NCBI RefSeq assembly: GCF_037143375.1
Contig: NZ_JBAWYV010000002.1
Location: forward strand, 15,064 to 79,063
Length of the DNA: 64,000 bases
Direction: 5' to 3'
Origin: Rhodoferax sp.
Lineage (GTDB): Bacteria > Pseudomonadota > Gammaproteobacteria > Burkholderiales > Burkholderiaceae_C
Positions 10,891 through 57,897 of the stretch are shown in pieces (position 1 is the stretch's first letter; the number at the start of each line of letters is the position of its first letter). The position numbers and the translations under genes were made by a program. Below the pieces are notes generated by a model. That model was given only the letters and a program-made list of their open reading frames with translations. It ran no database searches and was not told where the DNA came from.

Positions 10891-10938
10891 ATAATAGCTG
10901 CTCACGCATATAGCACGGGGGCTACAGCCATATTTAGC
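10891..10938 (+). repeat. copy of dispersed palindromic repeat (ACGGGGGCTA family), intergenic / overlapping the 3' end of the GT4 gene
   Basis: ATAATAGCTGCTCACGCATATAGCACGGGGGCTACAGCCATATTTAGC. It shares the TAGCTnnTnnCGC block and the invariant ACGGGGGCTA with 7 other copies. Confidence 0.8.
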
Positions 10939-12019
10939 ATAAATCCAGATGCCGAAGAGCGGTCTGATCCAGCACCTGCAGCAATTTATGCGTGGCGTCG
11001 GTCCACGAATAGGCATGGGCCGTGGCATGGGCGGCCTCTGACATGCTTTGCCACTCGGCATCCGAATCACGGCACAGTGCCACGATGGCATCGGCCATGC
11101 CCTGCACAGACTCCTTTTCAACCAGTACACCACCGCCCTGCCCGATCAGATCGGGTGCTGCGCCAATGGGCACGCCGATAACGGGCGTGCGGCAGGCCAT
11201 GGCTTCGAGGATCGGTAGGCCAAAGCTGTCCAGGCGCGAGCCAAATAGCCAGTAGTCGCAAGCCGCGTAATGCAAACGCAAATCCTGCTGCGCCGGGCGG
11301 TAGAAATATTGAGTGCCCACAGGCAGCGGCAGCTCGGCAGATACTGCCTCGGTGCCAAAGGCCAGCACCTGCAGATCGGGAATCTGCTGGCGTGCCAGTG
11401 CACAGGCAGCAATGCAGATGTCGCTGCCTTTGATGGCCGCATGGGCATAGATGAAGCCCACGCGCGGCGGGCGATTGCGCACTCTCAGCGGTGCATTGAA
11501 CTGCTGCAAATCGACCGCATTGGCCACCACCGTCATGGGCAGGGAACCTAACGCCTCTTCAATGGTTTGGGCCAACCCGCGTGAAATCGCCAGCTTGGTA
11601 TTGGGCAGACGCAGGGCGGCATGCAGTTGAGGCAGTACCTGCGGTCCAAACCACGCTTCATAGCCTTGGATCAGGTGGACCTTGCGACCCTTGGCCGCGC
11701 TAAAGCCATGCATCCAGACCGCCGTCTCCCACCAAGTGGCCACCACCACATCGGCATCGGGCACATCCGCCTCACCAATCGGGCCCAAACGTGGCATCAC
11801 TTTGTGCGGCACACCCGAAAGTGCAATATGGCCCACCGGTCCTGGCTCTTGGGTCGGCGCGAACAGCGCACGCAAACGTTGCCGCCAGGGTAGCGGGTCT
11901 TGTGCGCATGTCACCACAAGCACCTCGTGACCGAGCTTTTGCAGTTCGCTGGCATACACCGCGATGACACGGGCACCTCCGGTGAAGTTGTCACTGGGCA
12001 ATAGAAAGGTAAATCGCAT
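10934..12019 (-). CDS. glycosyltransferase family 4 (GT-B)
   Basis: 361-aa ORF. N-terminus MRFTFLLPSDNFTGGARVIAVYASELQKLGHEV. C-terminal GT1/GT4-type block FGLPILEAMACRTPVIG. Confidence 0.8.
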   Translation of the reverse strand: MRFTFLLPSDNFTGGARVIAVYASELQKLGHEVLVVTCAQDPLPWRQRLRALFAPTQEPGPVGHIALSGVPHKVMPRLGPIGEADVPDADVVVATWWETAVWMHGFSAAKGRKVHLIQGYEAWFGPQVLPQLHAALRLPNTKLAISRGLAQTIEEALGSLPMTVVANAVDLQQFNAPLRVRNRPPRVGFIYAHAAIKGSDICIAACALARQQIPDLQVLAFGTEAVSAELPLPVGTQYFYRPAQQDLRLHYAACDYWLFGSRLDSFGLPILEAMACRTPVIGVPIGAAPDLIGQGGGVLVEKESVQGMADAIVALCRDSDAEWQSMSEAAHATAHAYSWTDATHKLLQVLDQTALRHLDLC

Positions 12020-12039
12020 AGGGGAACGGTGAGTAAAGT

Positions 12040-13422
12040 TCAGCGGAGCAACAGGTCGAGCAGCCTATGCATGAGCCAAGCGATGGCCCCGGCCAGCAGC
12101 AGTGCCAATGGCCAGACGACCTCGGATTTCCAGGACATCAGGCCCTGGCGTAACTTGAAAACTATAGCCACCGGCCAACCGGCAAACTGGCTGGCCACCA
12201 CCGCCAGCACCGCGCCTTGAACACTGCCCAACGCATAACCCAGCGGCACCAGAACCACCAGTGCCAGCGCGCGCAGCGTGTTGCTCAAGGTCACCCAGCC
12301 GGGGCGATTGCGGGCAAACATCATCTGCTCCAGCACCTGGTAGCGCATGGCCACCAAACCCAGAGCCAACATCTGCAACATCCAGCCAGCCTCGGCATAA
12401 CGAACATCGTACAGAATGCGCACCACCCAATCGCCCAGCACCAGGGTCAGGCCAGCAATGCTGCCAAGGATGGCATCGGCGATTTGCTGTATGCGGGTAT
12501 AGACCTTGTGGGCGGCCGCATCGCCGCTGCGCAGCGCTTCGCTCAGACCAGGAAACACCAGATGCGCATTGAGGTTGCCCACCAGGCCAATGATGGCAGC
12601 CAGCAGCAGCGAGGCGATGGAGAACACGCCAAAGTCCTGCGCTGCCAATACACCGCCCAGAATCAATTTTTCGCCATTGGAGGCGGCAAAGCCGATGATG
12701 GAGGAGAGAAAAATCCACTTGCCGAAACCGACTATGTCATGCAGGCTGGCACGGTCCCAACAAGGCTTGTAGGCGGGGCCATGAAACAGGGTGTGGCTGA
12801 GCACGGTGCGCGCCAGCGTGGCGGTGACGGTGCCCAGCAGCAGGCTCCAGACCGAGTGCGTCCAGAGCGCGCAAGAAATAGTCACCACCATGCCGGCCAG
12901 TTGCGTCAGCAGTTCAAGGCGCGTAAGCAGCCGGGTCTGCAGTGCGCGCTGGGCGGTGGCAATGTGCATGGACTCTGCCCCTTGCAGCAGGGCACTGAGT
13001 GCGAACACCAGCACCATGGCGGGTAGACGTGCATCGGCATAGACGGTGTCGGCACGGAACGGCGCATAAACCGCGCACAGCTTGAGGCCCAGCGCAATCA
13101 TCGCCACGATGGCAGCCAGCAGCACGCCACGGGCGAACTGCACTGAGAACGCGGTGCCCAGAAATTTTGTCTGCTCGCCTCGCGGATGGGTCACCACGCT
13201 TTGCCAGACGCCCAGGTCGGAGAACATCACCAGCGCAAAGTACAGGGTTTGCACTGCGGCCATCAGACCAAAGGACTCGGGCAACAGCAAGCGCGTCAGC
13301 ACCAGGCTGCTGAGCAGCCGCAGGCCTTGCGACGCCACATTGCTGCCCACCAGCCAAGCCGCTGCGTGCAACATGCGGCGCTGCAAGGAGGGTCCGTTGT
13401 CAGCCCCGTCGGCCACTACCAC
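12040..13422 (-). CDS. oligosaccharide flippase (Wzx / MOP superfamily polysaccharide biosynthesis protein)
   Basis: 460-aa ORF, hydrophobic throughout (about 12 predicted helices). The N-terminus AAWLVGSNVASQGLRLLSSLVLTRLLLPESFGL is typical of Wzx-like proteins. It overlaps the upstream GT2 stop by 7 nt. Confidence 0.75.
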   Translation of the reverse strand: MVVADGADNGPSLQRRMLHAAAWLVGSNVASQGLRLLSSLVLTRLLLPESFGLMAAVQTLYFALVMFSDLGVWQSVVTHPRGEQTKFLGTAFSVQFARGVLLAAIVAMIALGLKLCAVYAPFRADTVYADARLPAMVLVFALSALLQGAESMHIATAQRALQTRLLTRLELLTQLAGMVVTISCALWTHSVWSLLLGTVTATLARTVLSHTLFHGPAYKPCWDRASLHDIVGFGKWIFLSSIIGFAASNGEKLILGGVLAAQDFGVFSIASLLLAAIIGLVGNLNAHLVFPGLSEALRSGDAAAHKVYTRIQQIADAILGSIAGLTLVLGDWVVRILYDVRYAEAGWMLQMLALGLVAMRYQVLEQMMFARNRPGWVTLSNTLRALALVVLVPLGYALGSVQGAVLAVVASQFAGWPVAIVFKLRQGLMSWKSEVVWPLALLLAGAIAWLMHRLLDLLLR

Positions 13423-14396: not shown

Positions 14397-14398
14397 GG

Positions 14399-15610: not shown

Positions 15611-15622
15611 GGAAAAATAACC

Positions 15623-16204: not shown

Positions 16205-16208
16205 GGGT

Positions 16209-17210: not shown

Positions 17211-17214
17211 GGGT

Positions 17215-18240: not shown

Positions 18241-18301
18241 GCCTGCAAGTGTCAGCGGCTGTCGGTTATATATCGTTACCGAAATGTGAACTTCTGCAAG
18301 C

Positions 18302-19342: not shown

Positions 19343-19432
19343 GGGGGGTGTTACCTCTGGGGGGGGAAACCTTCATTCTAAAAATTCACACGCGTGATGT
19401 ATGGTCGATGTGTGAACTCTCACCCCCTGATT

Positions 19433-21807: not shown

Positions 21808-21964
21808 GTGGGCACACGTCTGTAAATTTCGACAGGGCAAAAGTTGTCAACGTCACCCCGAGCGTTGACCGATTGCATCCTAATCAGGTGCGCCACCCCC
21901 TGCCCGGTTACCAATATGATTCTTTTACCCATGTCTTTGCTTTGTTGGCCTAGCTGTAGTCGCT

Positions 21965-33219: not shown

Positions 33220-33248
33220 TGATTGAATCCAGAAATACTATGAAAAAC

Positions 33249-33295
33249 AGAGCTACTAACGCTTATTCAACGGGGGCTAGAGCCCATTAAGCCTA
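33249..33295 (+). repeat. copy of dispersed palindromic repeat overlapping the 3' end and stop codon of paiB
   Basis: AGAGCTACTAACGCTTATTCAACGGGGGCTAGAGCCCATTAAGC. The paiB stop TGA (33267-33269) and the last residues GSSPR are encoded by the repeat. Confidence 0.8.
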
Positions 33296-40939: not shown

Positions 40940-42099
40940 ATCAAATCACGCAGCGGATGTTTGTCAGGTGTCCAGGGGCTGGCAAAAAAAGGCACCACCA
41001 TGGCCGCGTTAACCTCTTCAATGCGAGCCGGATTCCAGCGGGGAAGCTGGTCTTTGTCCACAGCTAGCGCGCGAATACCTTCAACCGTGTCACTCTGACT
41101 GCCAGTGCGGCCAAGATGAACGGGGTGAAAGCAGTGCTGTACCAGATCGCGCTCCATGCGCAGATCGTCGGCCAGCGACAGGGTGCGGGCGCGCCGAATC
41201 TGTTCCAGCGCCACATGCAACATCAAGGGTGATCGTTTGCGCAAAAGGGCCGCCGTATGTCGGGTCCACTCGTCATTTTCAGCTTCTAAAGCTTGGACAA
41301 TGGCGGCTACCGACTCCATCGCGAAATAATGATCAATTTGACCTCTAGCCCCCGTTGCGCCTGCGCTAGTAGCTACTGAATACATAGCAACCCAAGCGTC
41401 CACCTTGGATGACTGCGCAAAATCAATTTTTGCCAAGTCTTCCCAGGCCGGTTGCAGTTGCACGGCATCAAAACAAACATCGGCCAAGCCCAGGCTCAGC
41501 GCCTGGCCAGCACCCAGCATTTCGCCCGTCATGGCCAGCCATTCACCCGTGCGCCCCGGGCAACGGCTGAGAAAATAGCCACCGCCCACGTCAGGAAACA
41601 AGCCAATCAGGGTTTCAGGCATGGCCAGCTTGCTGCGCTCGGTCACGATGCGCAGACTCGCCATTTGACCCGTTGCAAAAGCAGGCGCACGGCCGTGCCC
41701 GCACAAGCCCATGCCTCCGCCCATCACGATGCCGTCCATGAAAACGATGTACGGCTTCGGGAAGGTGTGAATCAGGTGGTTAAGGGCGTATTCCTCGGTG
41801 AAGAAATCGTCCAATTCGGGGTTGTTTGCCAGTGCAGCCTGGTGAAAAAAGCGGATATCGCCACCTGCACAAAATGCACCAAAAGGACCGTTTTTATTAA
41901 CGCCCCGAATGGCCACCGCCTTCACAGCGGCATCATCACGCCAGGCCAGCAAGCAAGCCATCAGGGCACGAATCATTTCCAGTGACAAGGCATTGAGCGC
42001 TTTAGGGCGGTTCAAGGAGATGAATCCGACCTGCCCTTTGACTTCGCACAGCACTGTGGGCGGCTCAACAGGGCGTGCCGTTAAATTGACGGTATTCAT
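40936..42099 (-). CDS. enoyl-CoA hydratase/isomerase family protein (3-hydroxyisobutyryl-CoA hydrolase-like)
   Basis: 387-aa ORF with GFISLNRPKALNAL, FCAGGDIR and the long ECH_2-type C-terminus. Confidence 0.8.
   Translation of the reverse strand: MNTVNLTARPVEPPTVLCEVKGQVGFISLNRPKALNALSLEMIRALMACLLAWRDDAAVKAVAIRGVNKNGPFGAFCAGGDIRFFHQAALANNPELDDFFTEEYALNHLIHTFPKPYIVFMDGIVMGGGMGLCGHGRAPAFATGQMASLRIVTERSKLAMPETLIGLFPDVGGGYFLSRCPGRTGEWLAMTGEMLGAGQALSLGLADVCFDAVQLQPAWEDLAKIDFAQSSKVDAWVAMYSVATSAGATGARGQIDHYFAMESVAAIVQALEAENDEWTRHTAALLRKRSPLMLHVALEQIRRARTLSLADDLRMERDLVQHCFHPVHLGRTGSQSDTVEGIRALAVDKDQLPRWNPARIEEVNAAMVVPFFASPWTPDKHPLRDLI
41341..41388 (-). repeat. copy of dispersed palindromic repeat, in frame inside the enoyl-CoA hydratase gene
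   Basis: The plus strand reads ACCTCTAGCCCCCGTTGCGCCTGCGCTAGTAGCTACTGAATACATAGC. It encodes AMYSVATSAGATGARG. Confidence 0.8.
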
Positions 42100-44883: not shown

Positions 44884-44906
44884 GGTTCACTTTCTCTTAA
44901 ATCTTG

Positions 44907-45851
44907 TCAAAATTTTAAAATCTGTTCAATTTCCAGCGGACTCAAGAGTCGCCCCGGTATCAATTCACCCGCTTTAACTTGGGCCGTGCCCAATAAAGCG
45001 TGTGGGTTGTCGCCATACACAGCGACCAGCCCGTTGTCAGGCCAGTTTCCCCGGCGCCGCACGCCACTGAGAAATCGCCCTGTATTCTCGCTGTCCAACG
45101 TGACAACCGTGTGGTCACGCAAAAGCGAATCCACGGGCATCAAGCAGTTCAAACGTTCCTCTTCGGTCATGGCCTCCAACGCTTCCAGCGTCACACACTG
45201 CGACACATGGAAACCACCAGTTTCAACCCGACGCAATGCCGTCAGGTGGGCACCACAACCGAGCGCTTCACCAATATCCTCGCCCAGCGTCCGAATATAA
45301 GTTCCCTTGCTGCACTTCACTATTAAATTAATAGCTGGGTGCGCAGGCTCTACGGGGGCTAGAGCCACATTTAACTCATAAATCGTGACTTCACGCGCTT
45401 CGCGCTCAATCTCGATCCCTGCCCGCGCATATTCATAAAGCGCTTTGCCGTCCTTTTTCAAGGCACTGTGCATGGGCGGAATTTGCCGGATTAACCCGGT
45501 AAACCGCGGCAGCACATTCTCGATATCTTGCACGCTCACATTCACGGCCCGCTCTACTATCACTTCGCCTTCAGCATCGCCAGTACTGGTTTTTTGACCC
45601 AACCGGGCGACGGCTTCATACGTTTTATCTGCATCCAGCTGAAGCTGGCTAAATTTGGTCGCGGCACCAAAACACAAGGGCAACAAACCTGTTGCCAAGG
45701 GGTCCAGCGTGCCAGTATGACCCGCCTTTTCAGCCCGCAACAGCCACTTTACTTTTTGCAATGCATCATTGCTCGACCAACCCAAAGGTTTGTCCAGCAA
45801 CAACACCCCATGCACGGGGCGCCTGGCAACCCGAACACGGGGCGCATTCAT
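44907..45851 (-). CDS. truB: tRNA pseudouridine(55) synthase
   Basis: ORF 44907..45893. Met15 (MNAPRVRV, ATG 45851) starts 5 nt after the rbfA stop. GHTGTLDPLATG and CSKGTYIRTL motifs. Confidence 0.95.
   Translation of the reverse strand: MNAPRVRVARRPVHGVLLLDKPLGWSSNDALQKVKWLLRAEKAGHTGTLDPLATGLLPLCFGAATKFSQLQLDADKTYEAVARLGQKTSTGDAEGEVIVERAVNVSVQDIENVLPRFTGLIRQIPPMHSALKKDGKALYEYARAGIEIEREAREVTIYELNVALAPVEPAHPAINLIVKCSKGTYIRTLGEDIGEALGCGAHLTALRRVETGGFHVSQCVTLEALEAMTEEERLNCLMPVDSLLRDHTVVTLDSENTGRFLSGVRRRGNWPDNGLVAVYGDNPHALLGTAQVKAGELIPGRLLSPLEIEQILKF
45322..45375 (+). repeat. copy of dispersed palindromic repeat, in frame inside truB
   Basis: ATTAAATTAATAGCTGGGTGCGCAGGCTCTACGGGGGCTAGAGCCACATTTAAC. 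It encodes (antisense) NVALAPVEPAHPAINLI, directly before CSKGTYIR. Confidence 0.8.
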
Positions 45852-45855
45852 CGGA

Positions 45856-46224: not shown

Positions 46225-46241
46225 GATTTACATCAAACCTA

Positions 46242-49181
46242 TCAAAGCGTACGCGCAATTTCGCGAATCTCGAAGAACTCCAGCACGTCACCCTTTTGGA
46301 TGTCGTTGTAATTCTTGATATTCAAGCCGCACTCGAAGCTTTCCTTGACTTCCTTCGCATCGTCCTTGAAACGCTTGAGCGAGTCGAGTTCACCCGTGAA
46401 GATGACCACGTTTTCGCGCAACAGACGCAGACGCGCCGTGCGTTTGACGATACCGGCAGTAACCATACAGCCGGCAATCGAGCCAATCTTGGAAACCTTG
46501 AACACTTCGCGAATTTCGGCCGTGCCGATAACTTCTTCTTTCTTGTCCGGCGTCAGCATGCCCGACATGGCGAGCTTGAGCTCATCCACGGCGTCATAAA
46601 TGATGTCGTAGTAACGAATGTCCACGCCGTTGCTCTCGGCCAGCTTGCGGGCGCCAGCGTCGGCACGGGTGTTGAAACCAATGATGACCGCCTTGGACGC
46701 AATCGCCAGATTCACATCCGACTCGCTGATAGCACCGACTGCCGTGTACACCAATTGCACTTTGACCTCGTCGGTCGAGAGCTTGAGCAACGACTGGGCC
46801 AGGGCTTCTTGCGAACCTTGCACGTCGGCCTTGATGATGATCGGAACCAGCTTGACAGCGCCTGCAGTCATGTCGGTGAACATGTTCTCCAACTTGGCGG
46901 CTTGCTGTTTTGCCAGCTTGGTGTGGCGGAACTTGCCGGCACGGTAGGTGGCGATTTCACGGGCACGACGTTCGTCAGCCATCACCATGAACTCATCACC
47001 CGCTGAAGGAACTTCAGTCAGACCTTGAATCTCGACCGGAATCGATGGACCCGCCGTCTTGATGGTCTTGCCGTTTTCGTCCAGCATGGCGCGAACACGG
47101 CCATAGGTTGAACCAGCCAGCACCACGTCGCCGGTCTTGAGCGTGCCGGACTGCACCAGAATCGTGGCCACTGGGCCGCGTCCCTTGTCCAGGCGCGCTT
47201 CAATCACCAGGCCCTTGGCCATGGCATCGATCGGGGCACGCAACTCCAGCACTTCAGCTTGCAGCAACACTTGTTCCAGCAAAGCATCAATGCCTTGACC
47301 CGTTTTAGCAGAGACTGAGACAAACGGTGAATCACCGCCAAACTCCTCAGGCACCACCTCTTCAACCACCAGTTCGTTTTTAACGCGCTCTGGGTTGGCA
47401 TCAGGCTTGTCGATCTTGTTGATCGCAACAACGATAGGAACACCGGCCGCCTTGGCGTGCTTGATGGCCTCTTTGGTTTGCGGCATGACGCCGTCGTCAG
47501 CTGCCACCACCAAAATCACGATGTCGGTCGCCTTGGCACCGCGAGCACGCATAGCCGTAAAGGCTTCGTGACCCGGAGTATCAAGGAAAGACACCATGCC
47601 GCGTGGCGTTTCAACGTGGTACGCACCAATGTGCTGGGTAATACCACCGGCTTCGCCCGAGGCCACTTTGGCACGGCGAATGTAATCGAGCAAGGAAGTC
47701 TTGCCGTGATCGACGTGACCCATGACGGTCACCACTGGTGCACGTGGCAAGGACTCGGAATGCTGTTGCAACACTTCGTCATCGGTAAAGGCTTCTGGAT
47801 CGTCCAGCGCCGCCACGATCGCCTTGTGACCCATTTCTTCCACCAAAATCATGGCAGTGTCTTGGTCCAAAGGCTGGTTGATGGTGACCATCTGGCCCAG
47901 CTTCATCAGGTGTTTGATCACCTCAGAGGCTTTAACGGCCATCTTGTGTGCCAATTCAGCCACGGTAATGGTTTCAGGCACGTGGACTTCAATGACGCGA
48001 GCCTCGACCGGTGCGGCTTGCACACGGTTTTCATCACGGTCACGGTCGTTACTGCCGCGTTTGCCACCGCGCGCCGGAGCACGCCAGTTGGTGCCACGAC
48101 CTGCGGGTGCCGTTGTGGCGCCACGGGTAGGAATGGCACTCTTCTTTTTCGGATCGCCAGCCCAGCTGCTTGACAGCTTGGCAGACTTGACTTCTTTGCC
48201 AGCGCCTGGGGCTGCAGCGGCTCCAGGTGCGGCTGGCGCACCGGGTTTGGCTGGTTTAGCAGGCACTGCGCCCACCGCAGGCTTGTGCAGCGTGCCCTTG
48301 ATGCCCGCTTTAGTGGGATCAGGCTTGACTTCTTCCACCTTTTTGGGTGGTGGCGGCGGTGCTTTTTTGCCTGGCGATGACATCATCAGGCGAATGGCTG
48401 CGGCCTCCGCTTCGGCCTTGCGGCGGCGGTCACCCAAATCAGCGGCGCGAGCCACATCTTCGGCTGCGCGGGCTTTAGAGTCAGCGGCTGCTTTCTCTGT
48501 GGCCAGCAGCTTGTCTTTGGCAACAGCTTCTGCTTTTGCAGTTACTTCCAAAGCTTTGACTGCTGCAAGATCAATAGCATCCTGCGCAGTAGCAACGGGG
48601 GCTACAGGCTTATTTTGTTCTTTAAGAGCGTGCGCAGCAGCAGTTTCAGCCGCTAATTTGGAAGCCTTTTCGGCTTCTTGCTCAGCCGCTTCACGGTTGC
48701 GGGCTTCCTGCTCTTCACGCTGACGGCGTCGCTCAGACAATTCTTCTTCCTGGCGGCGGATCAACTCAGCCTGACGACGAGCCTCTTCTTCACGACGCGC
48801 CAATTCGGCGTTGTCGATCTGGGGCGTGGTGTCAACTTCATGTTCTGGCTCAGCGACTTCAACCGCGACTTCAACTCCATCTTCACGGCGAACAAAGGTT
48901 CGCTTCTTGTGCATCACGACCGGAATCGTGCGCACCTTGCCACTGGAGTCAGCCTGTTTGATTTCACTGGTCGATTTCTTGACCAGCGTAATTTTTTTGC
49001 GCTCAGGGCTGCTCGTGCCATGGCTGGCGTGCAGATGGTTCAACAAAAGCTGTTTGTCAGCTTCTGTCAATTTATCGGTCGCAGCCATCTTGGCTACGCC
49101 GGCCGACTTCAGCTGTTCAAGCAGCGTATCGGTTGATTTTTTGAGTTCATTAGCAAACTCGGCGACGGTCGTACTGGACAT
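46242..49181 (-). CDS. infB: translation initiation factor IF-2
   Basis: 979-aa ORF. Ala/Glu/Lys/Pro-rich N-terminal region. GTPase core [24 protein letters not shown] and NKID. Confidence 0.97.
48571..48616 (+). repeat. copy of dispersed palindromic repeat, in frame inside the variable N-terminal region of infB
   Basis: TCAATAGCATCCTGCGCAGTAGCAACGGGGGCTACAGGCTTATTTT. It encodes (antisense) [16 protein letters not shown]. Confidence 0.75.
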
Positions 49182-49205
49182 TTGTTCTGTAACCTTTCAT
49201 GACCA

Positions 49206-50702
49206 TTACTCTTGAGAAGCGGCGTCATTGGTAAACCAATGTGCGCGCGCTTTCATGATCAAGGTCTTGGCTTCGTCCGCAGACTGGCCGGTGATTTCTG
49301 TAAGTTCATCTACGGCCAAATCAGCCAGGTCGTCACGGGTGTGAACGCCGGCATCAGCCAGTTTGCCGAGTAGCTCGGGGGTAACGCCGTCAAGGTCGTG
49401 CAAGTCCAGCGAAACCTCGTCAACATTTTCTTCGTGCGCAATTTCCATGGTCAACAACGCGTCTTTTGCACGGTTGCGCAACTCGTTGGCCGTGTCTTCG
49501 TCGAAACTCTCGATTTCGAGCATTTCTTCGAGTGGCACATAAGCGACCTGCTCCAGACTGGTGAAGCCTTCGGCGATCAACAGATCGGCGATTTCTTCGT
49601 CCACATCGAGCTTTTCCATGAACAACTTGCGACCTGAATCGGTCTCGGTGGCCTGCTTCTGAGCGGACTCAGCAGCATCAAGAATGTTGATTTTCCAGCC
49701 TGTCAAATCAGACGCCAGGCGCACATTCTGGCCGCCACGTCCAATCGCAATCGCGAGATTTTCTTCGTCAACCACCACATCCATGGCATGACGCTCTTCA
49801 TCAACCACGATGGAAGTTACGTTTGCAGGAGCCAACGCACCAATCACGAACTGGGCTGGGTCTTCGCTCCACAACACAATGTCGACGCGCTCGCCGGCCA
49901 ATTCATTGGTGACGCCATTGACGCGGGTGCCGCGCACACCGACACAAGTGCCGATGGGGTCGACGCGTTTGTCATGCGACAGCACGGCGATCTTGGCGCG
50001 TGAACCGACGTCACGGGCGCAGGATTTAATCTCCAGCAAACCTTGTTCGATTTCAGGCACTTCCTGGCGGAACAACTCGACCATGAATTCGGGCGCTGAA
50101 CGCGACAAAATGATGGGCGCGCCGCGCAAGGTCAGATCCACTTCCATGATCATGGCGCGAACCCGGTCACCCATGCGCAGATTTTCTTTGGGGATCATCT
50201 CGCTGCGTCGCAAACGGCCTTCCACACGGCCACTTTCGACAATGATGTCGCCCTTGTCCATGCGCTTGACGGTGCCGACAAAAATCTTGTCACCACGTGA
50301 CATGAAATCATTGAGCAGCATCTCGCGCTCGGCATCGCGAATTTTTTGCAGGATGACTTGCTTGGCAGCCATGGCGCCGATACGGCCGATAGGAACAGAC
50401 TCAACTGTTTCTTCGATGTATTCGTCCACCTCGATGTCAGGGATCTGCTCTTTGGCTTCGAACAACAGGATTTCCTGGTCAGGCAACTGCAATCCCGCTT
50501 CATCGGGGACCACATGCCAGCGACGAAACGTTTCATAGCTGCCGTTGTCACGGTCAACCACCACGCGGATATCCACTTCGCCTTGGAACAGCTTCTTAGA
50601 TGCTTGTGCCAGCGCTGCCTCAACAGCGCCAAACACAACATCTCTCTCCACGTTCTTTTCGCGTGAGATAGCCTCAACCAGCATTAACATTTCGCGATTC
50701 AT
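49206..50702 (-). CDS. nusA: transcription termination/antitermination factor NusA
   Basis: 498-aa ORF with [19 protein letters not shown]1, KH and C-terminal acidic repeats are recognisable. Confidence 0.97.
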
Positions 50703-50724
50703 GCCATGACTCTCCTATTTCAAT

Positions 50725-51333
50725 TCAATCTAAATTTGTCTCTGCGTCGCCTTTGGCACCCCGGCCCTTGAAGCTGACGATGGGCGCCAGTCGCGCCTCA
50801 CGTATTTCATCCAAGGTAAAACCCAGGGCCTGCACGGGTGCCGGCAACCTCTTCTTACTGATCTTTTGGCCCGGCTTACCCACTGGCGCATCGCTCCAGA
50901 CGATTTGCCAGCCAGCCACACCGGCCTCACTGAGCGTGCGCTCCAGCGTGCCGCGGAATTTCTTGCGGGTAGGGCTTACCTGCCCCGCCGCTGCTGCGCC
51001 AATTGGCGCTTTCAGATTCACATCGATCTCTTGACCGACGAAACGCTCAAAATCTTTCTCATGCCGCAAAGGACGATCGATACCAGGCGAGGAAACCTCC
51101 AACCGCTTGTATTCAATCCCATCAACTTCCAGTGCAAACAGCAACTGGCGCGTTACTTTTTCACAATCCTCAACCGTCACAAATTGCTCGACACCACTCA
51201 CAACACCTTCAACAGGTGCCGTCCAGGGGTGATCGATCGTGATGCGAAGCAGGCCCGCAGCCGAGCGCTCGGTTTCCACGAGGTCATAGCCGAGACCGGC
51301 TACGGTTTGTTCAACAATTTCTTTCAGGGCCAC
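50725..51333 (-). CDS. rimP: ribosome maturation factor RimP
   Basis: ORF 50725..51375 begins at a TTG inside the upstream terminator. A GTG at 51333 gives (M)ALKEIVEQTVAGLGYDLVETERS, the usual RimP N-terminus. The start remains uncertain. Confidence 0.85.
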   Translation of the reverse strand: MALKEIVEQTVAGLGYDLVETERSAAGLLRITIDHPWTAPVEGVVSGVEQFVTVEDCEKVTRQLLFALEVDGIEYKRLEVSSPGIDRPLRHEKDFERFVGQEIDVNLKAPIGAAAAGQVSPTRKKFRGTLERTLSEAGVAGWQIVWSDAPVGKPGQKISKKRLPAPVQALGFTLDEIREARLAPIVSFKGRGAKGDAETNLD

Positions 51334-51373
51334 AGATGACGAGTAGTTAGGAGTGTTGCAAAAACAATCGACC

Positions 51374-51403
51374 AAAAAAAACGGGCGGTAAATACCCGCC
51401 CGT
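51374..51403 (-). terminator. rho-independent terminator downstream of yejF
   Basis: ACGGGCGG-loop-CCGCCCGT stem-loop (51381-51403), followed on the minus strand by a run of T (51374-51380). Confidence 0.75.
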
Positions 51404-51444
51404 TTGGTCGTGAGCTTTGGATTATATCCTGAAACCCTAAGGAT

Positions 51445-53082
51445 TTACCCTGCTGCTGCCAGCAAAGACCGGGTGTAGTCGTGCTTTGGCACGGTCAACA
51501 CAGCACTCACTGGCCCGGACTCCACAATTTGACCTTCTTTCATGACTAAAACGTAGTGAGCCATGGCCCGAATTACATCAACATCATGGGTGATCAGTAG
51601 ATAACTCAGGCTCCGTTCACGCTGAAAGCGCTGCAGCAATTGCAACACCTGCTTTTGGATCGTGACATCAAGCGCGCTGGTAGGTTCATCAAGAACAAGC
51701 ACCCGCGGATTCACAATGATCGCGCGTGCGATGGCGATCCGTTGGCGCTGACCGCCTGAAAACTCATGAGGATACCGTTGCATGAGGTCATGCAACTGCT
51801 GCGCATCGTGTCCGGTACCCAGGCCTACATCCTGCAAAGCCTGCTCGACACGCACTCGCAGCGCTCTTGTTGTTAATTCAGGCTCGTGCACCGTAAGACC
51901 TTCGCCCACAATTTCTTCGATCGTCATGCGCGGCGACAGCGATGAAAAAGGATCCTGAAACACCACCTGCACCTCACGCCGCATGGCTTTGTTTTTGGCC
52001 GCACTGGCGTTCCAGCTTTGCCCCGTCACCTGCAAAGAACCTTTAAGGGGCAGCAAACCCAGCGCCGCCAGCGCCAGTGTTGATTTGCCGGAGCCCGATT
52101 CGCCCATCACGCCCAAAGTTTGCCCCGGATAAAACTGAAAGTCCACACTCTGTACAGCCACATACTCGGCATGGCTGAACCAGCCTTTCACACCGGGTCG
52201 TGCCACCGGATACGACACCCGCAAGGCCTGCGCCTGCATCACCGGCGCTTGCCCCGGCACCAGCGGCAACGCCAGCACGTCACGCACCGGTTTGCTGTCA
52301 ACCAAGCGCTGGGTGTAGGGGTGCTGCGGCTGTGAGAAAACATCGGCCACTAGGCCCTGCTCCACCACATGGCCGTTTTCCATGACGATAACGCGGTCGG
52401 CAAAGCGCCGCACCAAATTAAGGTCGTGGGTGATCAGCATCACCGCCATGCCATTTTTCTTTTGGAACGCCGTCAGCAGGTCGAGAATTTGGCCGCGCAA
52501 ACTCACGTCGAGGGCGGTGGTCGGCTCATCCGCCAACAGCAATTTGGGCTGACAGGCCAGCGCCATGGCGATCATGGCGCGCTGGCGTTGCCCGCCACTG
52601 AGTTGGTGCGGATACGATTTGGCCCGCCGCTCGGCTTCACTGATGCCAGTATCTGCTAGTAATTTAATAGCTGCTTGCGCGCACTGGACGGGGGCTAGAC
52701 CCTGTTTTAGTTCTAAAACCTCGGCAATTTGATCGCCTATCGTGAACAGCGGGTTCAACGCCGTCATGGGCTCCTGAAAGATCATCGAGATGTCTTGCCC
52801 CCGCAGGCCGCGCAGTTCACGTTCGGGCATCGTGAGCAGGTCGCGCTGACCGAACAAGGCGTTGCCGCTGATTTCAGCGTTTTGCACCAGACGCAACAAA
52901 CTCAAGGCAGTCACGGTTTTGCCCGAGCCCGACTCGCCCACCAGCGCCAGTTTTTCGCCCGGTGCTATGAAGAAGTCGATGCCATGCACCACTTCTTGGC
53001 CCGCAAACGAGATGCGAAGGCCACGCACATCCAGCAATTTTGCGGCGTCTGGCGGGTTGGCGACCGCATTGAAATCCGTCAT
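51445..53082 (-). CDS. yejF: ABC transporter ATP-binding protein with duplicated ATPase domains (YejF-like)
   Basis: ORF 51445..53190. Met37 (MTDFNAV, ATG 53082) overlaps the permease stop as ATGA. Two Walker A sites (GESGSGKT, GESGSGKS) and two signatures (LSGGQRQR, FSGGQRQR). Confidence 0.9.
   Translation of the reverse strand: MTDFNAVANPPDAAKLLDVRGLRISFAGQEVVHGIDFFIAPGEKLALVGESGSGKTVTALSLLRLVQNAEISGNALFGQRDLLTMPERELRGLRGQDISMIFQEPMTALNPLFTIGDQIAEVLELKQGLAPVQCAQAAIKLLADTGISEAERRAKSYPHQLSGGQRQRAMIAMALACQPKLLLADEPTTALDVSLRGQILDLLTAFQKKNGMAVMLITHDLNLVRRFADRVIVMENGHVVEQGLVADVFSQPQHPYTQRLVDSKPVRDVLALPLVPGQAPVMQAQALRVSYPVARPGVKGWFSHAEYVAVQSVDFQFYPGQTLGVMGESGSGKSTLALAALGLLPLKGSLQVTGQSWNASAAKNKAMRREVQVVFQDPFSSLSPRMTIEEIVGEGLTVHEPELTTRALRVRVEQALQDVGLGTGHDAQQLHDLMQRYPHEFSGGQRQRIAIARAIIVNPRVLVLDEPTSALDVTIQKQVLQLLQRFQRERSLSYLLITHDVDVIRAMAHYVLVMKEGQIVESGPVSAVLTVPKHDYTRSLLAAAG
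52658..52710 (+). repeat. copy of dispersed palindromic repeat, in frame inside yejF
   Basis: AGTAATTTAATAGCTGCTTGCGCGCACTGGACGGGGGCTAGACCCTGTTTTAG. It encodes (antisense) KQGLAPVQCAQAAIKLLA, about 17 codons before the first LSGGQRQR. Confidence 0.8.
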
Positions 53083-54134
53083 TGATCGGCCTTTCTGGGG
53101 TCGAGCGCATCGCGCAAGGCATCGCCCATAAAGGTGAGTAAGAGCAGCGTCACCACCAGTACGCAAAACGTGGCGAGCGAAATCCACCACGCATCAATGT
53201 TGTTTTTGCCTTGCGACAGCAATTCGCCCAACGACGGGGTGCCAGGCGGCACACCCAGGCCCAAAAAATCGAGCGAGGTCAGCGCCAGAATCGAGCCGCT
53301 CATGCGAAACGGCAAGAAAGTCACGACTGGCGTCAGGCTATTGGGCAGCAGATGCCGCACAATAATTTGCCAGTTGCTCACGCCCAAGGCGCGGGCGGCT
53401 CGCACGTAATCGAGTTGCCGGTTGCGCAAAAACTCGGCGCGCACGTAGTCACTCAGACCCATCCAGCCAAACAGACTCAACAAAATCAGCAGCAGTGCCA
53501 GACTGGGCGCAAACACCGCGCTGAAGATGATCAACAGGTACAACTCCGGCATGGAACCCCATATTTCGATAAAGCGCTGAAACGCCAGATCGGTCTTGCC
53601 ACCAAAAAATCCCTGAATCGCCCCGGTGATGACGCCCAGCAGCACGCCCGTGGCGGTCAAGGCCAGCGCAAACAGCACGCTGACCCGAAACCCATAAATC
53701 AGTTGCGCCAGCAGGTCACGCCCCCGGTCGTCGGTGCCCAACCAGTTGTCGCGGCTCGGCGCTGACGGATTGGGCTCTTTGGCGAAATAATTGAGCGTTT
53801 TGGGGCCATAGGGGTTGGGTGCAAACAAAGCCCAGTTGCCGGGCAGCGCCAGGCGCGCCCTGATGAACGGGTCCAGATAGTCTGTAGCGGTGTCAAAGTC
53901 GCCACCAAACGTTTTTTCGGAATAGTCCTTGACCATCGGAAAATAAGTCGTGCCCTCGTAGCGCACCACCAGCGGGCGGTCGTTGGAAATAATTTCGGCC
54001 ATCAGGCTTAAAGACACCAGCACCGCAAACACCAGGAGGCTCCAATAGCCCAAACGGTTGCGCTTGAAGCGAAACCAGGCGCGCTGCCAAGGACTCAGCG
54101 AGGCTGTTCTTTTCGACCTTGGCGCGGGCTGCAT
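53079..54134 (-). CDS. yejE: ABC transporter permease (YejE-like)
   Basis: ORF 53079..54173. Met14 (MQPAPRSK, ATG 54134) avoids overlap with the upstream gene. BPD-transporter-type hydrophobic profile. Confidence 0.85.
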   Translation of the reverse strand: MQPAPRSKRTASLSPWQRAWFRFKRNRLGYWSLLVFAVLVSLSLMAEIISNDRPLVVRYEGTTYFPMVKDYSEKTFGGDFDTATDYLDPFIRARLALPGNWALFAPNPYGPKTLNYFAKEPNPSAPSRDNWLGTDDRGRDLLAQLIYGFRVSVLFALALTATGVLLGVITGAIQGFFGGKTDLAFQRFIEIWGSMPELYLLIIFSAVFAPSLALLLILLSLFGWMGLSDYVRAEFLRNRQLDYVRAARALGVSNWQIIVRHLLPNSLTPVVTFLPFRMSGSILALTSLDFLGLGVPPGTPSLGELLSQGKNNIDAWWISLATFCVLVVTLLLLTFMGDALRDALDPRKADQ

Positions 54135-54147
54135 GGCGGGGCTGTGC

Positions 54148-55176
54148 TTAATCGAATTTGACACGCGGATCAACCCAGACGTAACAGAGATCGGAAATCA
54201 GCTTGGTGACCAGGCCAATCAGCGTAAAGAAATACAGCGTGCCCAGCACCACCGGGTAATCGCGCCGAATCACGCTCTCAAAGCTCAGCAGGCCCAGCCC
54301 GTCGAGCGAAAAAAGTGTCTCGATCAGCAAGGAGCCAGTAAAAAAAGCACCAATAAACGCCGCCGGAAATCCGGTGATGATCGGAATCAGGGCGTTGCGA
54401 AACACGTGTTTCCAGAGCACTTGGCGTTCATCCAGCCCTTTGGCCCGCGCCGTCACCACGTATTGCTTGCGAATTTCTTCTAAAAAAGCGTTCTTGGTCA
54501 GCATCGTGGTCACGGCAAAACTGCCCAGCACCATGGCGGTGACCGGCATCGCGATGTGCCAGAAGTAGTCGACCACGCGGGCGCCCCACGACAGCTCGTC
54601 CCAATTACTGGAGGTGAGCCCGCGCAAGGGAAACCACTGTAACTGGCCGCCAAAAATCACCAGCAGCGCGACCCCCAGAACAAAGCCGGGGATGGCATAA
54701 CCAAACAGCACCAGCAGCGTGGTAACGAAGTCAAAGCGCGACCCGGCCCGAACCGCCTTGGCAACCCCCAGCGGCACGGCAATCAGGTAGCTGATAAAAA
54801 AAGTCCACAGGCCCAGACTGATCGAAACCGGCAACTTTTCCCACAGCAGTTGTGACACGTCCTTGTTCTGGAAAAAACTCCGGCCCAGGTCAAAACGGGC
54901 AAATTGCCCCAGCATTTGAAAAAAGCGCTCGTGCGCGGGTTTGTCAAAGCCATACAAAGCCTTGATTTGCGCCAGCCGTTTAGGGTCAACGCCTTGCGCA
55001 CCGCGGTAACTCAAGCCGCCGCCTTCGGCGCTGCTACCGGTGCCGGCTTTGGCCTCGGCCATGTACTGCTCCACCGGGCCACCAGGCACAAACTGCACCA
55101 CCACAAAGGTCAGCAGCAACACGCCCAACAGCGTGGGCACCATCAGCAACAGGCGTTTAAGGATGTAGACCAGCAT
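54148..55176 (-). CDS. yejB: ABC transporter permease (YejB-like)
   Basis: 342-aa ORF with MLVYILKRLLLMVPTLLGVLLLTFVVVQFVPGGP, typical of DppB/OppB-type permeases. Confidence 0.9.
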   Translation of the reverse strand: MLVYILKRLLLMVPTLLGVLLLTFVVVQFVPGGPVEQYMAEAKAGTGSSAEGGGLSYRGAQGVDPKRLAQIKALYGFDKPAHERFFQMLGQFARFDLGRSFFQNKDVSQLLWEKLPVSISLGLWTFFISYLIAVPLGVAKAVRAGSRFDFVTTLLVLFGYAIPGFVLGVALLVIFGGQLQWFPLRGLTSSNWDELSWGARVVDYFWHIAMPVTAMVLGSFAVTTMLTKNAFLEEIRKQYVVTARAKGLDERQVLWKHVFRNALIPIITGFPAAFIGAFFTGSLLIETLFSLDGLGLLSFESVIRRDYPVVLGTLYFFTLIGLVTKLISDLCYVWVDPRVKFD

Positions 55177-55179
55177 GAT

Positions 55180-56994
55180 TTATTTTGCCCACCAGGTTTC
55201 AATGGCCCAGCTTTCGCCTTGGGCGTAAGGCGGCATCACCGGGGGTTGGGCGATGCGCCAGGCGTTATAAACAATGCGGTGCGTGCCAGCGGCCCACTGA
55301 GGTATCAGTAAATGGCTGTGACTGACCACCCGCTCAAGCGCACGACAAGCGGGCAGCAGCTCAGCCTTGGTTTTCGCGCTGGTCATCTTGCCGATCAGCG
55401 CATCGAGCGCCGGGCTCTTGACACCGGAGAGGTTGCCGGAGTCTTCAATATCAGCGGCCTTGCTGCCAAACAGGTCAGCGTATTCCTGCCCCGGGTTGTG
55501 CGTGCCGCCGTAGGCCATCGAAGTGATGTCGAACTCAAACTTTTGCAGGCGCTGCTGGTAGAGCGCAAAGTCAACCGGGCGAAAGTGGAGCGTGATGCCG
55601 AGTTTTTCGAGGTTGCGCGCCCACGGCGTCACGACCCGGGCGCTGCCTTCGTTGCTGTCCAGGTACTCAATCTCAAAGGCCTGGCCTTGGGCGTTGCGCA
55701 AGGCGCCGTCGCGCACGGTCCAACCAGCCTCTTTGAGCAAGGCTTGCGCCTGGCGCAGATTGGCGCGCAAGGACGAGTCGCCATCTGTTCGTGGGGTGAC
55801 GGTCATCGGGCCAAAGGCGGCGGCAGGAATATCCTTTCGCCAAGGTTCCATCAACGCCAATTCCTGCGCACTCGGCAGGCCCGCAGCCTGGCAATCGGTA
55901 TTGCCAAACAGACCGTTGACACGCTGATAAGCGTTGTAGAACATCTGGCGGTTCATCCACTCGTAATCCAGAGCCAGACCAAGGGCTTGGCGCACCCGCA
56001 CATCCTTGAAAGTGTCGCGCCGGGTGTTGAGCACGTAGCTCTGGAACCCCGACGGCAAGCGGTGCTTGAACTCGGCCTTGACCAACTCGCCGGAATCAAA
56101 GCGCTTCCCGGTCACGCGACGCGCCCAGTCACCGGCTGAGAAAAACCGCATCAAATCGAACTCACCCGCCTTGAGGGCTTCCAACCGGGCGGTGTTGTCC
56201 TTGTAAATCTTCACCGTGATGCGCTCGAAATTGTTGGTGCCGCGCTTCACGTTCAGGTCTTTCGCCCAATAACTGGCGTCACGCACATAGGTGATGTCTT
56301 TGCCAAAGCGCACTGGCCCTATTTTGTAAGGGCCGCTGCCAATAGGCGTGTCGGTTACCACCTGGTCAAACGGTTTGGCCTTGCCATTTTCCACACCCCA
56401 CTGGCGGCTGAACACCGGCAGGCCACCCACAGTGAGCGGCAAGCCCCGGTTGGGCTTCTTGAAACGGTAGCGCACGGTGCGCTCGTCCAAAACATCGATG
56501 CCTGCCACGTCTTCCAGCAAACTTTTGAACGCAGGCGAGGTGTGCGGCCCCATCAGGGTGTCAAAGCTGTGTTTGACGTCCTCGGCCAACACCGGGTCGC
56601 CATTGTGAAAGCGTGCTTGCGGGCGCAATTTGAAAGTGGCACTCAAACCATCTTTTGCCACCGCCACGTCACTGGCCAACAGTCCATAACCAGAGCCGGT
56701 TTCATCCAGCGCGCCGTTTAACAGCGAGTCAAACATCAGGTCTGAAAGGTACGCCGGGGCCGAACCCTTGATCGTGAACGGGTTGTATTTGTCAAACGTA
56801 GACACGCGCAAGTTGCTCACCAGGCGCAATTCGCCACCCTTGGGCGCCGTGGGATTGACGTAGTCAAAGTGCGAAAAATCGGGGGCGTACTTCAGGTCGC
56901 CCCACAGGGCGTAGCCGTGCGCCGCCCATGAGGGAGCGGACATCGCCCAACATAAAAAAAATAACAGACTTCGCATGAGACAATTCTGCATCAA
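55180..56994 (-). CDS. yejA: extracellular solute-binding protein family 5 (YejA-like)
   Basis: 604-aa ORF with a signal peptide ending SWAAHG. Size and position upstream of the two permeases and the double ATPase fit YejA. Confidence 0.8.
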   Translation of the reverse strand: MMQNCLMRSLLFFLCWAMSAPSWAAHGYALWGDLKYAPDFSHFDYVNPTAPKGGELRLVSNLRVSTFDKYNPFTIKGSAPAYLSDLMFDSLLNGALDETGSGYGLLASDVAVAKDGLSATFKLRPQARFHNGDPVLAEDVKHSFDTLMGPHTSPAFKSLLEDVAGIDVLDERTVRYRFKKPNRGLPLTVGGLPVFSRQWGVENGKAKPFDQVVTDTPIGSGPYKIGPVRFGKDITYVRDASYWAKDLNVKRGTNNFERITVKIYKDNTARLEALKAGEFDLMRFFSAGDWARRVTGKRFDSGELVKAEFKHRLPSGFQSYVLNTRRDTFKDVRVRQALGLALDYEWMNRQMFYNAYQRVNGLFGNTDCQAAGLPSAQELALMEPWRKDIPAAAFGPMTVTPRTDGDSSLRANLRQAQALLKEAGWTVRDGALRNAQGQAFEIEYLDSNEGSARVVTPWARNLEKLGITLHFRPVDFALYQQRLQKFEFDITSMAYGGTHNPGQEYADLFGSKAADIEDSGNLSGVKSPALDALIGKMTSAKTKAELLPACRALERVVSHSHLLIPQWAAGTHRIVYNAWRIAQPPVMPPYAQGESWAIETWWAK

Positions 56995-57045
56995 ATGCTT
57001 CTGCCGATTCGGTGGTGATTCAACTGCTTTTAAGAGAGAAAAGAT

Positions 57046-57840
57046 ATGGGATTCCTGACCGGAAAAAAATTACTGATTACAGGTGTTTTGTCCAAGCGCT
57101 CCATTGCCTACGGCATTGCGCAGGCTTGCCACGAGCAAGGTGCAGAGTTGGCTTTCAGCTATGTAGGCGAGCGCTTCAAGGAGCGCATCACCGAATTTGC
57201 GGCTGACTTCAACTCCACATTGGTGTTCGATTGTGATGTGGGTGATGACGCCCAGATCGAGAAACTGTTCACCGACTTATCAGCTACCTGGCCCAAGTTT
57301 GACGGCTTTGTGCACAGCATTGGCTACGCGCCCCGCGAAGCGATTGCCGGCAATTTCCTGGATGGCCTGAGCCGCGAAAACTTCCGCATTGCGCACGACA
57401 TCAGCGCCTACAGCTTTCCCGCGATGGCCAAAGCGGCCCTGCCCTACCTCAACGACAAGTCGTCGCTCGTTACATTGACCTATTTGGGTGGTGTGCGCGT
57501 GGTGCCGAGTTACAACACCATGGGCCTGGCCAAAGCGTCGCTGGAGTCGTCGGTGCGTTACCTGGCCGACGCCATTGGCCCACGCGGCATGCGCGTCAAT
57601 GGCCTGAGCGCTGGCGCGGTCAAAACCCTGGCTGCCAGCGGCATCAAGGATTTTGGCAAGTTGCTGAGCATTTCGGCGGCAGCATCGCCCCTCAAGCGCA
57701 ACGTGACGATTGAAGAAGTTGGCAACGTGGCTGCCTTCTTGCTCAGTGACCTGGCCTCCGGCATGACCGGGCAAATTTCGTATGTGGATTGCGGCGTCAG
57801 CCAGACCGCCGTTGCGGTCGTCGAAACCCCGTCTTCTTAA
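57046..57840 (+). CDS. fabI: enoyl-[acyl-carrier-protein] reductase (NADH)
   Basis: 264-aa ORF with MGFLTGKKLLITGV, HSIGYAP and YNTMGLAKASLE. Confidence 0.95.
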   Translation: MGFLTGKKLLITGVLSKRSIAYGIAQACHEQGAELAFSYVGERFKERITEFAADFNSTLVFDCDVGDDAQIEKLFTDLSATWPKFDGFVHSIGYAPREAIAGNFLDGLSRENFRIAHDISAYSFPAMAKAALPYLNDKSSLVTLTYLGGVRVVPSYNTMGLAKASLESSVRYLADAIGPRGMRVNGLSAGAVKTLAASGIKDFGKLLSISAAASPLKRNVTIEEVGNVAAFLLSDLASGMTGQISYVDCGVSQTAVAVVETPSS

Positions 57841-57845
57841 GGAAA

Positions 57846-57897
57846 AATAGCTTCTAGCCCCCGTACCACGGGCGCTAGAAGCTATTTAATTAATAGC
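57846..57897 (-). repeat. near-perfect palindromic copy of the dispersed repeat between convergent fabI and decarboxylase genes (possible bidirectional terminator)
   Basis: ATAGCTTCTAGCCCCCGT-ACC-ACGGGCGCTAGAAGCTAT at 57847-57885, 18-nt arms with one mismatch, followed by TTAATTAATAGC. Confidence 0.8.

Follow-up and report, generated by a model that had tools for sequence, protein, structure and literature searches.

How does one short sequence come to stand, in either orientation, both between genes and inside the reading frames of intact genes along a single stretch of bacterial DNA? The question is raised by a window of 64,000 nucleotides from Rhodoferax sp. (contig NZ_JBAWYV010000002.1, positions 15,064 to 79,063), which is the whole stretch analysed here and in which the 10-mer ACGGGGGCTA recurs as the core of a dispersed motif of about 68 bp. 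The initial annotation of this DNA proposed a mobile palindromic repeat that had colonised genes in the manner of the Rickettsia palindromic elements (RPEs). In-place and mostly length-neutral gain, vertical persistence, constraint on the DNA, occurrence in both orientations and lineage-specific upkeep together point to a double-stranded DNA signal read by a protein, and not to an inserted palindrome. That the motif is such a signal, read by a predicted protein or protein complex and arising and maintained in place, with a drive of the uptake-sequence type as leading candidate, is given a probability of roughly 35%. The evolutionary mode taken by itself, in which the motif is gained in place and its DNA is under constraint, is judged likely; the specific uptake-type drive, which is argued from analogy, would be a tentative choice.

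The motif and its copies

Both strands counted, ACGGGGGCTA occurs eight times in the window, against a mean of 0.06 over 100 dinucleotide-preserving shuffles, none of which attained eight matches. The cores start at positions 10915, 33270, 45352, 48595 and 52688 on the plus strand and at 31453, 41346 and 57855 on the minus strand, in exact agreement with the count and places first reported. When one mismatch is allowed, a single extra site is found (57868-57877), and this is the inverted partner within the 57855 copy. All eight cores are embedded in the same ~68-bp multi-block motif, and alignment of the eight copies gives the invariant layout CT-N11-AGC-N6-CGC-N7-ACGGGGGCTA, in which AT-rich stretches separate the blocks. 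The similarity that had been noticed beyond the core takes the form of a shared layout, and the spacing before ACGGGGGCTA, previously put at 6-9 nt, is constant at 7 nt.

The family was surveyed with an 18-base spaced pattern in one genome per GTDB species. At least 115 loci were found, nearly all of them in Rhodoferax or in unclassified Burkholderiales metagenome-assembled genomes (MAGs), with a few in Curvibacter, Polaromonas and Ramlibacter among the pattern matches listed. Specific to Rhodoferax and closely related Comamonadaceae, the motif is abundant throughout Rhodoferax itself, so that its excess extends beyond the window, and the dispersed repeat family with in-frame copies in intact genes that had been proposed is genuine. 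Compiled from 135 copies, the unit spans ~68 bp, from -36 to +31 relative to the core, and has the consensus TTGCTAT.AATT..ATAGCTGCTTGCGCA.ATTCC-ACGGGGGCTA-GAGGCC.ATTT, or in short form TTGCTAT-AATT-ATAGCTGCTTGCGCA-N6-ACGGGGGCTAGAGGCC-ATTT. Copies in either orientation, intergenic and intragenic, share this one DNA consensus. Their density is about one per 8-12 kb, and about one every 12 kb for those in other genomes that were not used as seeds. A position-specific scoring matrix (PSSM) of the 68-nt unit, trained on the 135 copies, scores the eight window copies at 56-75 bits, against a background mean of -96 (sd 17) and a best non-copy position of -16.6, values that are inflated because most training copies came from the pattern that fixes 18 positions. 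A role of the unit as a translation-start module was rejected, as a long open reading frame (ORF) begins at an ATG/TTG at +19 in only 3-4 of the 135 copies.

All eight cores of the window are perfect, compared with 13 perfect and 54 imperfect cores among the non-seed copies of other genomes (Fisher p = 1.2e-5), so that the invariant core is a trait of this lineage and not of the family. Several species carry the variant core ATAAGGGCT(A/G) between otherwise normal flanks (L007-L121, and the R. antarcticus record L149); this may represent either a second 'dialect' or a route by which cores commonly decay.

Gene contexts were assigned by Pfam and bear out those first described, with five internal, in-frame copies and a sixth at the stop codon of paiB. 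The five lie in genes for an LD-carboxypeptidase, an ECH_2 enoyl-CoA hydratase/hydrolase, TruB, IF-2 and a YejF-like double ABC ATPase. The copy at 31431-31498 (minus strand; core 31453-31462; 59.2 bits) is read in the sense frame by the LD-carboxypeptidase gene (31037-31996) as the peptide ATNSVAVSARETGASADFG and falls in the inter-domain loop of LdcA, which is ~20 aa longer than in solved homologues. The sense frame is also used in the ECH_2 hydratase gene (40936-42099), where the copy at 41324-41391 (minus strand; core 41346-41355; 66.5 bits) encodes AMYSVATSAGATGARGQID. Three plus-strand copies are read in the antisense frame: that at 45316-45383 (core 45352-45361; 74.6 bits) in truB (44907-45851), with the peptide LNVALAPVEPAHPAINLIV; that at 48559-48626 (core 48595-48604; 56.5 bits, the weakest in the window) in the variable N-terminal region of infB, the IF-2 gene (46242-49181); and that at 52652-52719 (core 52688-52697; 66.0 bits) in the yejF-like gene (51445-53085), with the peptide LKQGLAPVQCAQAAIKLLA. 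The copy at 33234-33301 (plus strand; core 33270-33279; 61.4 bits) covers the 3' end of paiB, the gene for a PaiB-like FMN-binding protein (33267-33896), and encodes its terminal ...GSSPR and stop codon. Between genes, the copy at 10879-10946 (plus strand; core 10915-10924; 74.1 bits) overlaps the 3' end of a GT4 glycosyltransferase gene (10934-12019, minus strand) and supplies its last codons and TAA stop, and the copy at 57833-57900 (minus strand; core 57855-57864; 63.4 bits) lies between the convergent fabI and Orn/Lys/Arg decarboxylase genes.

Length and age of the gene-internal copies

RPEs are palindromic insertions of ~100-150 bp that add 30-50 residues to their host proteins (PMC10969869). 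The Rhodoferax motif resembles them in being a dispersed repeat that sits in frame in intact, often essential genes and encodes an innocuous peptide, but its copies are mostly non-palindromic and add ~0 residues. The length of the 19-22-codon footprint was compared with that of homologues without the motif. The change is 0 to -1 for YejF (against M. tuberculosis Rv1281c), 0 for LolD (L033; against E. coli LolD, with no gaps across 222 residues), -1 for ECH (against PDB 4hdt), -1 for Pgi (L032; against 4em6) and +3 for GcvT (L021; against 3gir). TruB differs by +4 from E. coli TruB and by 0 from the nearest motif-free cluster representatives. GlmU (L088) is longer by +7 than 5vmk, and LdcA by about +20 than 6uuk and 5z01, both block-like differences. 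The change is at most three residues in six of the eight host proteins tested, so that the question whether residues were added or replaced is answered mostly by equal-length replacement. Residue-adding insertion, as in RPEs, fails at YejF, LolD, ECH, TruB and Pgi, where the change is ~0, and only LdcA has an insertion-like appearance.

The ancestral state of two sites can be read from a contig of a non-Rhodoferax member of the Comamonadaceae (L153), used as an outgroup, which has the same gene order, rimP-nusA-infB-rbfA-truB-typA-EamA-ECH. Its TruB and ECH align without gaps over the footprint, with unrelated residues, and its DNA at the footprint sites scores at background level (-71.6 bits at the ECH site). 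The same length with unrelated sequence suggests that the 68-nt motif was written over resident DNA on the Rhodoferax stem lineage. TruB, LdcA and the CCA-adding enzyme Cca each have identical length at the site in their 120 closest orthologues, most of which carry a motif-like peptide. In YejF and LolD the motif peptide occupies the same native helix with no length change, and in Cca the first copy starts exactly at the conserved TINA(L/I)A codons of the catalytic domain, where the comparison with E. coli Cca is indicative only; the shared helix and the Cca coincidence suggest that host sites were pre-adapted. Two motif copies are found in some single genes, among them the Rhodoferax gene for the CCA-adding enzyme (L035:48-1502) and that at L089:666-2882, and both Cca copies are kept in all 120 closest orthologues.

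A different picture is given by the junction between paiB and a deaminase gene, where ~74 nt are present here and in L082 and absent from three other Rhodoferax genomes, in which both genes abut or overlap (window 33219-33301, compared with L150:8595-8607, L151:8931-8938 and L152:9504-9511). The C-terminus of PaiB retains its ..LGL.. peptide here, yet the codons used for it are rare and AT-rich and match the flank of the motif. Upstream of the motif, LdcA orthologues differ by a separate indel of ~14 residues that is unrelated to the repeat; this GGKPDMADGHGHGEEQV-like segment is present in most Rhodoferax LdcA proteins and missing from that of the window (31037-31996).

A classical RPE-like miniature transposable element, inserting in frame and adding its own peptide, would account for copies in intact genes in two recurrent frames, for the extra ~20 aa of the LdcA loop (roughly one unit) and the ~74-nt block at paiB, and for the copies on a plasmid record, viral contigs and an integron cassette that are described below. 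It would also add 19-22 residues, whereas six of the eight host proteins change by three or fewer. Most copies form no hairpin and show no stem covariation, no excess of flanking direct repeats that could be target-site duplications was found at any boundary offset, and the two ends of the consensus lack the inverted relation that terminal inverted repeats would show. Young copies are lacking, and the motif is enriched in conserved core genes over the variable island of the window. For the gene-internal copies, insertion of the RPE type is largely refuted, and an element of this kind is an improbable source of the family.

The copies in truB, yejF, the hydratase gene and ldcA are orthologous across the genus and ancient. 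In the DNA of T118 (R. ferrireducens), of Rhodoferax sp. PAMC 29310 and of a closer relative (L124), orthologous copies show no indels and varying decay: the truB copy scores 74.6 bits in the window, 56 in T118, 31 in PAMC 29310 and 60.5 in L124; the yejF copy 66, 60, 30 and 63, respectively; and the ECH copy 66.5 in the window, 64 in T118 and 12 in PAMC 29310. A 21-kb locus sampled from another Rhodoferax genome retains no copies. The infB site of T118 scores -7.8 bits, higher than any non-copy position of the window; the infB copy was dropped as a candidate for a young, clean gain, as the T118 site may be a decayed copy. At 99.4-100% identity to the window, the sister contigs offer too few single-nucleotide differences for a test of strain polymorphism; one MAG contig (SERZ01001334.1, GCA_005795885.1) is 100% identical to window positions 47046-58342, and an identical FabI is encoded on freshwater-metagenome contigs. 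Between copies, pairwise identity at the 41 variable columns equals that of the shuffled null (best pair 31/41), and no near-identical pairs, subfamilies or long-range linkage were found at these columns. The fixed blocks are kept and the spacers randomised, where neutral decay would produce drift everywhere, suggesting position-specific constraint on every copy.

Frames, codons and folding

In 75 of the 135 copies, a frame of 200 codons or more runs through the whole unit without a stop. Under strict criteria for a gene-internal position (60 or more codons upstream, 40 or more downstream and a coding signal in third-position GC content on both sides), at least 35 of the 135 copies lie deep in long ORFs, and strict estimates range over 26-38%. 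The main frames of the strict set are the sense frame A.xxIAAxAxxTGAxG (n = 17) and the antisense frame LAPVxxAQxAI (n = 12), so the two recurrent frames recognised initially are real and valid across the clade. A third open frame, antisense SSPR..CASSY, is found almost exclusively in non-coding contexts. The frames in use are those that avoid the TAG triplets of the motif.

Gene-internal copies impose codons that their hosts otherwise seldom use. In the five copies of the window, the unusually rare codons are CTA and TTA for leucine, which make up 2.9% and 3.9% of Leu codons, together with ATA, AGA and GTA; relative codon frequency, as a geometric mean, is 0.20-0.24 within the copies and 0.30-0.36 gene-wide. 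In the yejF copy, each of the five Leu codons is either CTA or TTA (p about 1e-6). This use of rare codons argues that the constraint acts on the DNA and not on the peptide. Extra conservation of whole gene-internal copies between species was rejected, the effect being modest or absent (0.75 inside and 0.78 in the flanks for truB; 0.85 and 0.76 for yejF), with the fixed positions alone being constrained.

Every copy had been taken to be capable of forming a hairpin. When the window copies were folded as single-stranded DNA, only the 57855 copy was exceptional (dG -21.4 kcal/mol, z -8.6), the remaining seven giving z values of +0.4 to -1.7. In the set of 135, z averages about -0.6 to -0.9 whether copies are gene-internal or intergenic, and strong palindromes number two, so the hairpin claim contracts to one of eight copies in the window and two of 135 overall that beat shuffles. 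Neither the GCTAT...ATAGC dyad nor the long stem of the 57855 type shows compensatory changes, variants on the two sides being independent. The window has no Rfam match at gathering thresholds, and at a relaxed E-value only generic hairpins are matched, at the 57855 copy. A hairpin or structured RNA as the basis of the motif was rejected on these three grounds: no excess stability, no covariation and nothing in Rfam. The left arm of the 57855 copy is a perfected inverted copy (57868-57877, ACGGGCGCTA); the resulting hairpin of ~20 bp precedes a TTTTT run on the minus strand and, judged from its sequence and position, is probably a bidirectional terminator between convergent genes.

These results bear on two further explanations. 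The recurrent peptides LAPV..AQAAI and IAA.A..TGA.G and the partial dyad symmetry might be read as signs that what is conserved is in truth a structured RNA or a selected peptide motif, but the same DNA consensus is found in both orientations and outside genes, rare codons are imposed, and the folding and Rfam results are as given above; this explanation is barely credible. Families of repetitive extragenic palindromic (REP) sequences and REPINs offer a closer comparison, as they too consist of short dispersed units in the hundreds with partial dyad symmetry, long vertical persistence and lineage-specific decay. A family of this type could be sustained by a domesticated REP-associated tyrosine (RAYT, Y1) transposase and decay where the enzyme was lost, and it would fit the differences in persistence between lineages, the (G/A)TAGC head beside a partly symmetric segment, and the one copy that is a perfect long hairpin. 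REPs are extragenic hairpins, however, whereas the Rhodoferax motif needs no hairpin (no significant one in 133 of the 135 copies, no stem covariation) and is often intragenic, with five of the eight copies in the window lying inside genes and no less than a quarter of all copies deep inside them. No associated transposase was seen in the sampled loci: genes flanked by two copies encode an MFS transporter, AcrB and oxidoreductases, with no transposase or RAYT gene among them, which counts against such an association at these loci. Ordinary single genes bracketed by a copy at each end include those of an MFS_4 transporter (L061:5393-6763) and an AcrB-family pump (L113:1094-4468). A REP-type origin is accordingly considered remote.

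A possible uptake-type drive and its alternatives

Under the reading of the motif as a double-stranded DNA signal, a protein or protein complex would read the motif in duplex form, and the motif would arise and persist in place, without transposition, wherever the encoded peptide is tolerated. DNA with a better match would be preferentially taken up or recombined, by which matches would accumulate and persist in vertically inherited DNA, and perfected inverted forms such as the 57855 copy might be co-opted as terminators. Uptake sequences are known to accumulate in place in genes, in tolerated frames and at poorly conserved positions, and to be rare in newly acquired genes (Findlay & Redfield, PMC2817400); their inverted pairs form terminators, and 34.5-65% of them are coding (PMC2817400). 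The Rhodoferax motif shares with the uptake signal sequences (USS) of Pasteurellaceae and the DNA uptake sequences (DUS) of Neisseriaceae a lineage-specific distribution, a highly conserved core, occurrence in both orientations and AT-rich flanks with A- or T-tracts. Many of its copies are likewise intragenic without indels and in tolerated frames, with a coding fraction of roughly 26-55%. The lineage-specific decay of cores is counted as a further likeness, as are the single terminator-like inverted pair between convergent genes and the lower frequency of the motif in a variable island.

That island occupies positions 1-30 kb of the window and contains one copy, the one at 10879-10946, compared with seven in the conserved housekeeping half (one-sided binomial p = 0.04); for a selfish inserting element, the opposite distribution would be expected. 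It carries genes for two-component hybrid histidine kinases, SpoIIE/GGDEF response regulators and diguanylate-cyclase sensors, together with an exopolysaccharide cluster (GT2/GT4 glycosyltransferases, a Wzx-like flippase, Poly_export and a sugar transferase), and adjoins a cyclase/FHA gene. The same position in other Rhodoferax genomes is occupied by different genes (TPS/ShlB or MshE-type ATPases).

Several observations count against an uptake-type signal gained stepwise in place. The motif is ~68 bp long, with four fixed blocks and a high information content, whereas uptake signals measure 9-12 bp; at ~1 copy per 8-12 kb it is about tenfold sparser than such signals (~1 per kb); and it imposes rare codons where USS frames favour preferred ones. 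The flanks are conserved as strongly as the core, which is often the first part to be lost in decaying lineages, and the scores that set copies apart from background are inflated as stated above. Perfect cores were always seen within a full-length motif, and the window holds no partial or intermediate sites; such all-or-none copies are better explained by whole-unit copying than by stepwise point mutation. The block-like differences in GlmU, in LdcA and at the paiB junction point the same way. Copies also occur on a plasmid record and on viral contigs. A 31.9-kb R. antarcticus record (NZ_CP019241.1, 'plasmid unnamed1') carries nine copies of 24-68 bits, one with a perfect core, and 15 of 23 pattern matches on IMG/VR viral contigs (L125-L147) are genuine full-length copies of 50-77 bits. 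To our knowledge no protein is known to bind the 68-bp motif, and natural competence or sequence-biased uptake is unreported for Rhodoferax in the searchable literature. A further difference from USS and DUS is that the window shows no excess of one-off cores, and no paper in the searchable literature ties uptake sequences to Comamonadaceae.

Linear in form, the R. antarcticus record abounds in toxin-antitoxin genes and IS1634, and three of its copies are intragenic, two in an FtsX-like permease gene and one in pabB. An identical copy is common to the viral contigs L129 and L130. The viral contigs may be Rhodoferax phages or prophage records that include flanking host DNA.

The all-or-none character of the copies is what would be expected if a mobile unit were pasted over resident DNA, with element-derived (for example single-stranded) copies annealing at microhomology and replacing a short patch, a process akin to short-patch illegitimate recombination or ectopic gene conversion in which the net length change could lie anywhere between 0 and the full unit. 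Full flanks at every perfect core without intermediates in the window, the spread of length changes (-1, 0, 0, 0, +3, +7 and about +20), the pre-adapted host sites (one helix in two ABC ATPases, the TINA(L/I)A codons of Cca) and the ~74-nt block at paiB all fit such pasting. It would, however, be expected to leave recent copies or subfamilies, whereas variable positions are near random between copies; the variable 30-kb island has just one of the eight copies; neither a source of element DNA nor an enzyme is known; and natural short-patch replacement is extremely rare. Patch replacement is therefore rather unlikely, though less so than an RPE or REP origin. At about the same low level of belief, the motif may be a new replicator or signal that spreads by equal-length overwriting through templated copying and is kept intact by lineage-specific enzymes or uptake machinery. 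If this were true, overwriting would let the motif colonise essential genes such as truB, infB, lolD and cca.

Binding sites for an abundant chromosomal protein, whether nucleoid-associated, domain-organising or regulatory, would also evolve in place, by ordinary selection and without any bias in uptake. An array of such sites would agree with conserved blocks that are spaced by roughly one helical turn and separated by A/T tracts, with the spacing of ~4-20 kb between copies in the window, with position-specific DNA constraint in coding and non-coding copies, and with the length neutrality of copies in genes. Hundreds of sites at tens of bits each are nonetheless far above known architectural needs; selection per site is expected to be very weak, yet all eight window cores are perfect; and entire lineages let their sites decay. 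This explanation is held to be doubtful, on a par with patch replacement, and the two are the rivals to be taken seriously.

Other dispersed motifs are less similar. HIP1 (GCGATCGC) of cyanobacteria is hyper-abundant in and outside genes, where selection or drive maintains it, and arises in place (PMC5861425), but it is a simple 8-bp palindrome that occurs about once per gene, whereas the Rhodoferax motif is a long asymmetric composite found about once per 10 kb. The BRE repeat of Betaproteobacteria (PMC3110155), which is about 90 bp long, 69% GC and tandem, was rejected as a different element. A 2017 survey from the Mrazek laboratory found in R. ferrireducens T118 the most significant spaced pentamer pairs of all genomes surveyed (PMC5217627), numbering 140 with a mean spacer of 21, 34% in genes and 61% intergenic, and left them uncharacterised (PMC5217627). 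The 68-bp family would yield such pairs and is probably what was detected. Dispersed genomic motifs as such are already known; no description of this motif family was found in the searchable literature, nor was ACGGGGGCTA in a bacterial context.

A relative of the motif is found well beyond the family's hosts. The E. coli plasmid NZ_CP022165.1 carries a diverged copy (L148:2986-3053; 40.8 bits; core GCAAGGGCTA) in the 'orfF/gcuF' cassette of the dfrA12-orfF-aadA2 class 1 integron array; the cassette is present in ~1,700 enterobacterial plasmid records and is annotated as a DUF1010 protein. Translated antisense, the motif reads 'SSP..ASSY', which is what the first ~23 positions of Pfam DUF1010 correspond to; one Rhodoferax copy also matches DUF1010 weakly (E = 0.0066). 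This sequence likeness suggests that the cassette derives from a Comamonadaceae relative and that the repeat may have produced part of its ORF as an artefact. A longer parent element was rejected: flanks beyond the 68 bp are alike only between orthologous loci, and the remainder of DUF1010 belongs to the orfF cassette alone. The motif thereby inflates annotation, in that part of a Pfam family carried by clinical class 1 integrons looks like a translated related copy.

Known classes of bacterial repeats, short uptake or recombination signals on the one hand and inserted mobile elements on the other, both fit the motif poorly. Here a 68-bp composite occupies essential genes while leaving their length as it was, its bases prevail over codon preference, and its fixed blocks have been held genus-wide. 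Rhodoferax is culturable and several complete genomes are available, making the question directly testable. The family points to an unrecognised process at the level of the DNA, be it a bias in uptake, a binding protein or templated patch replacement.

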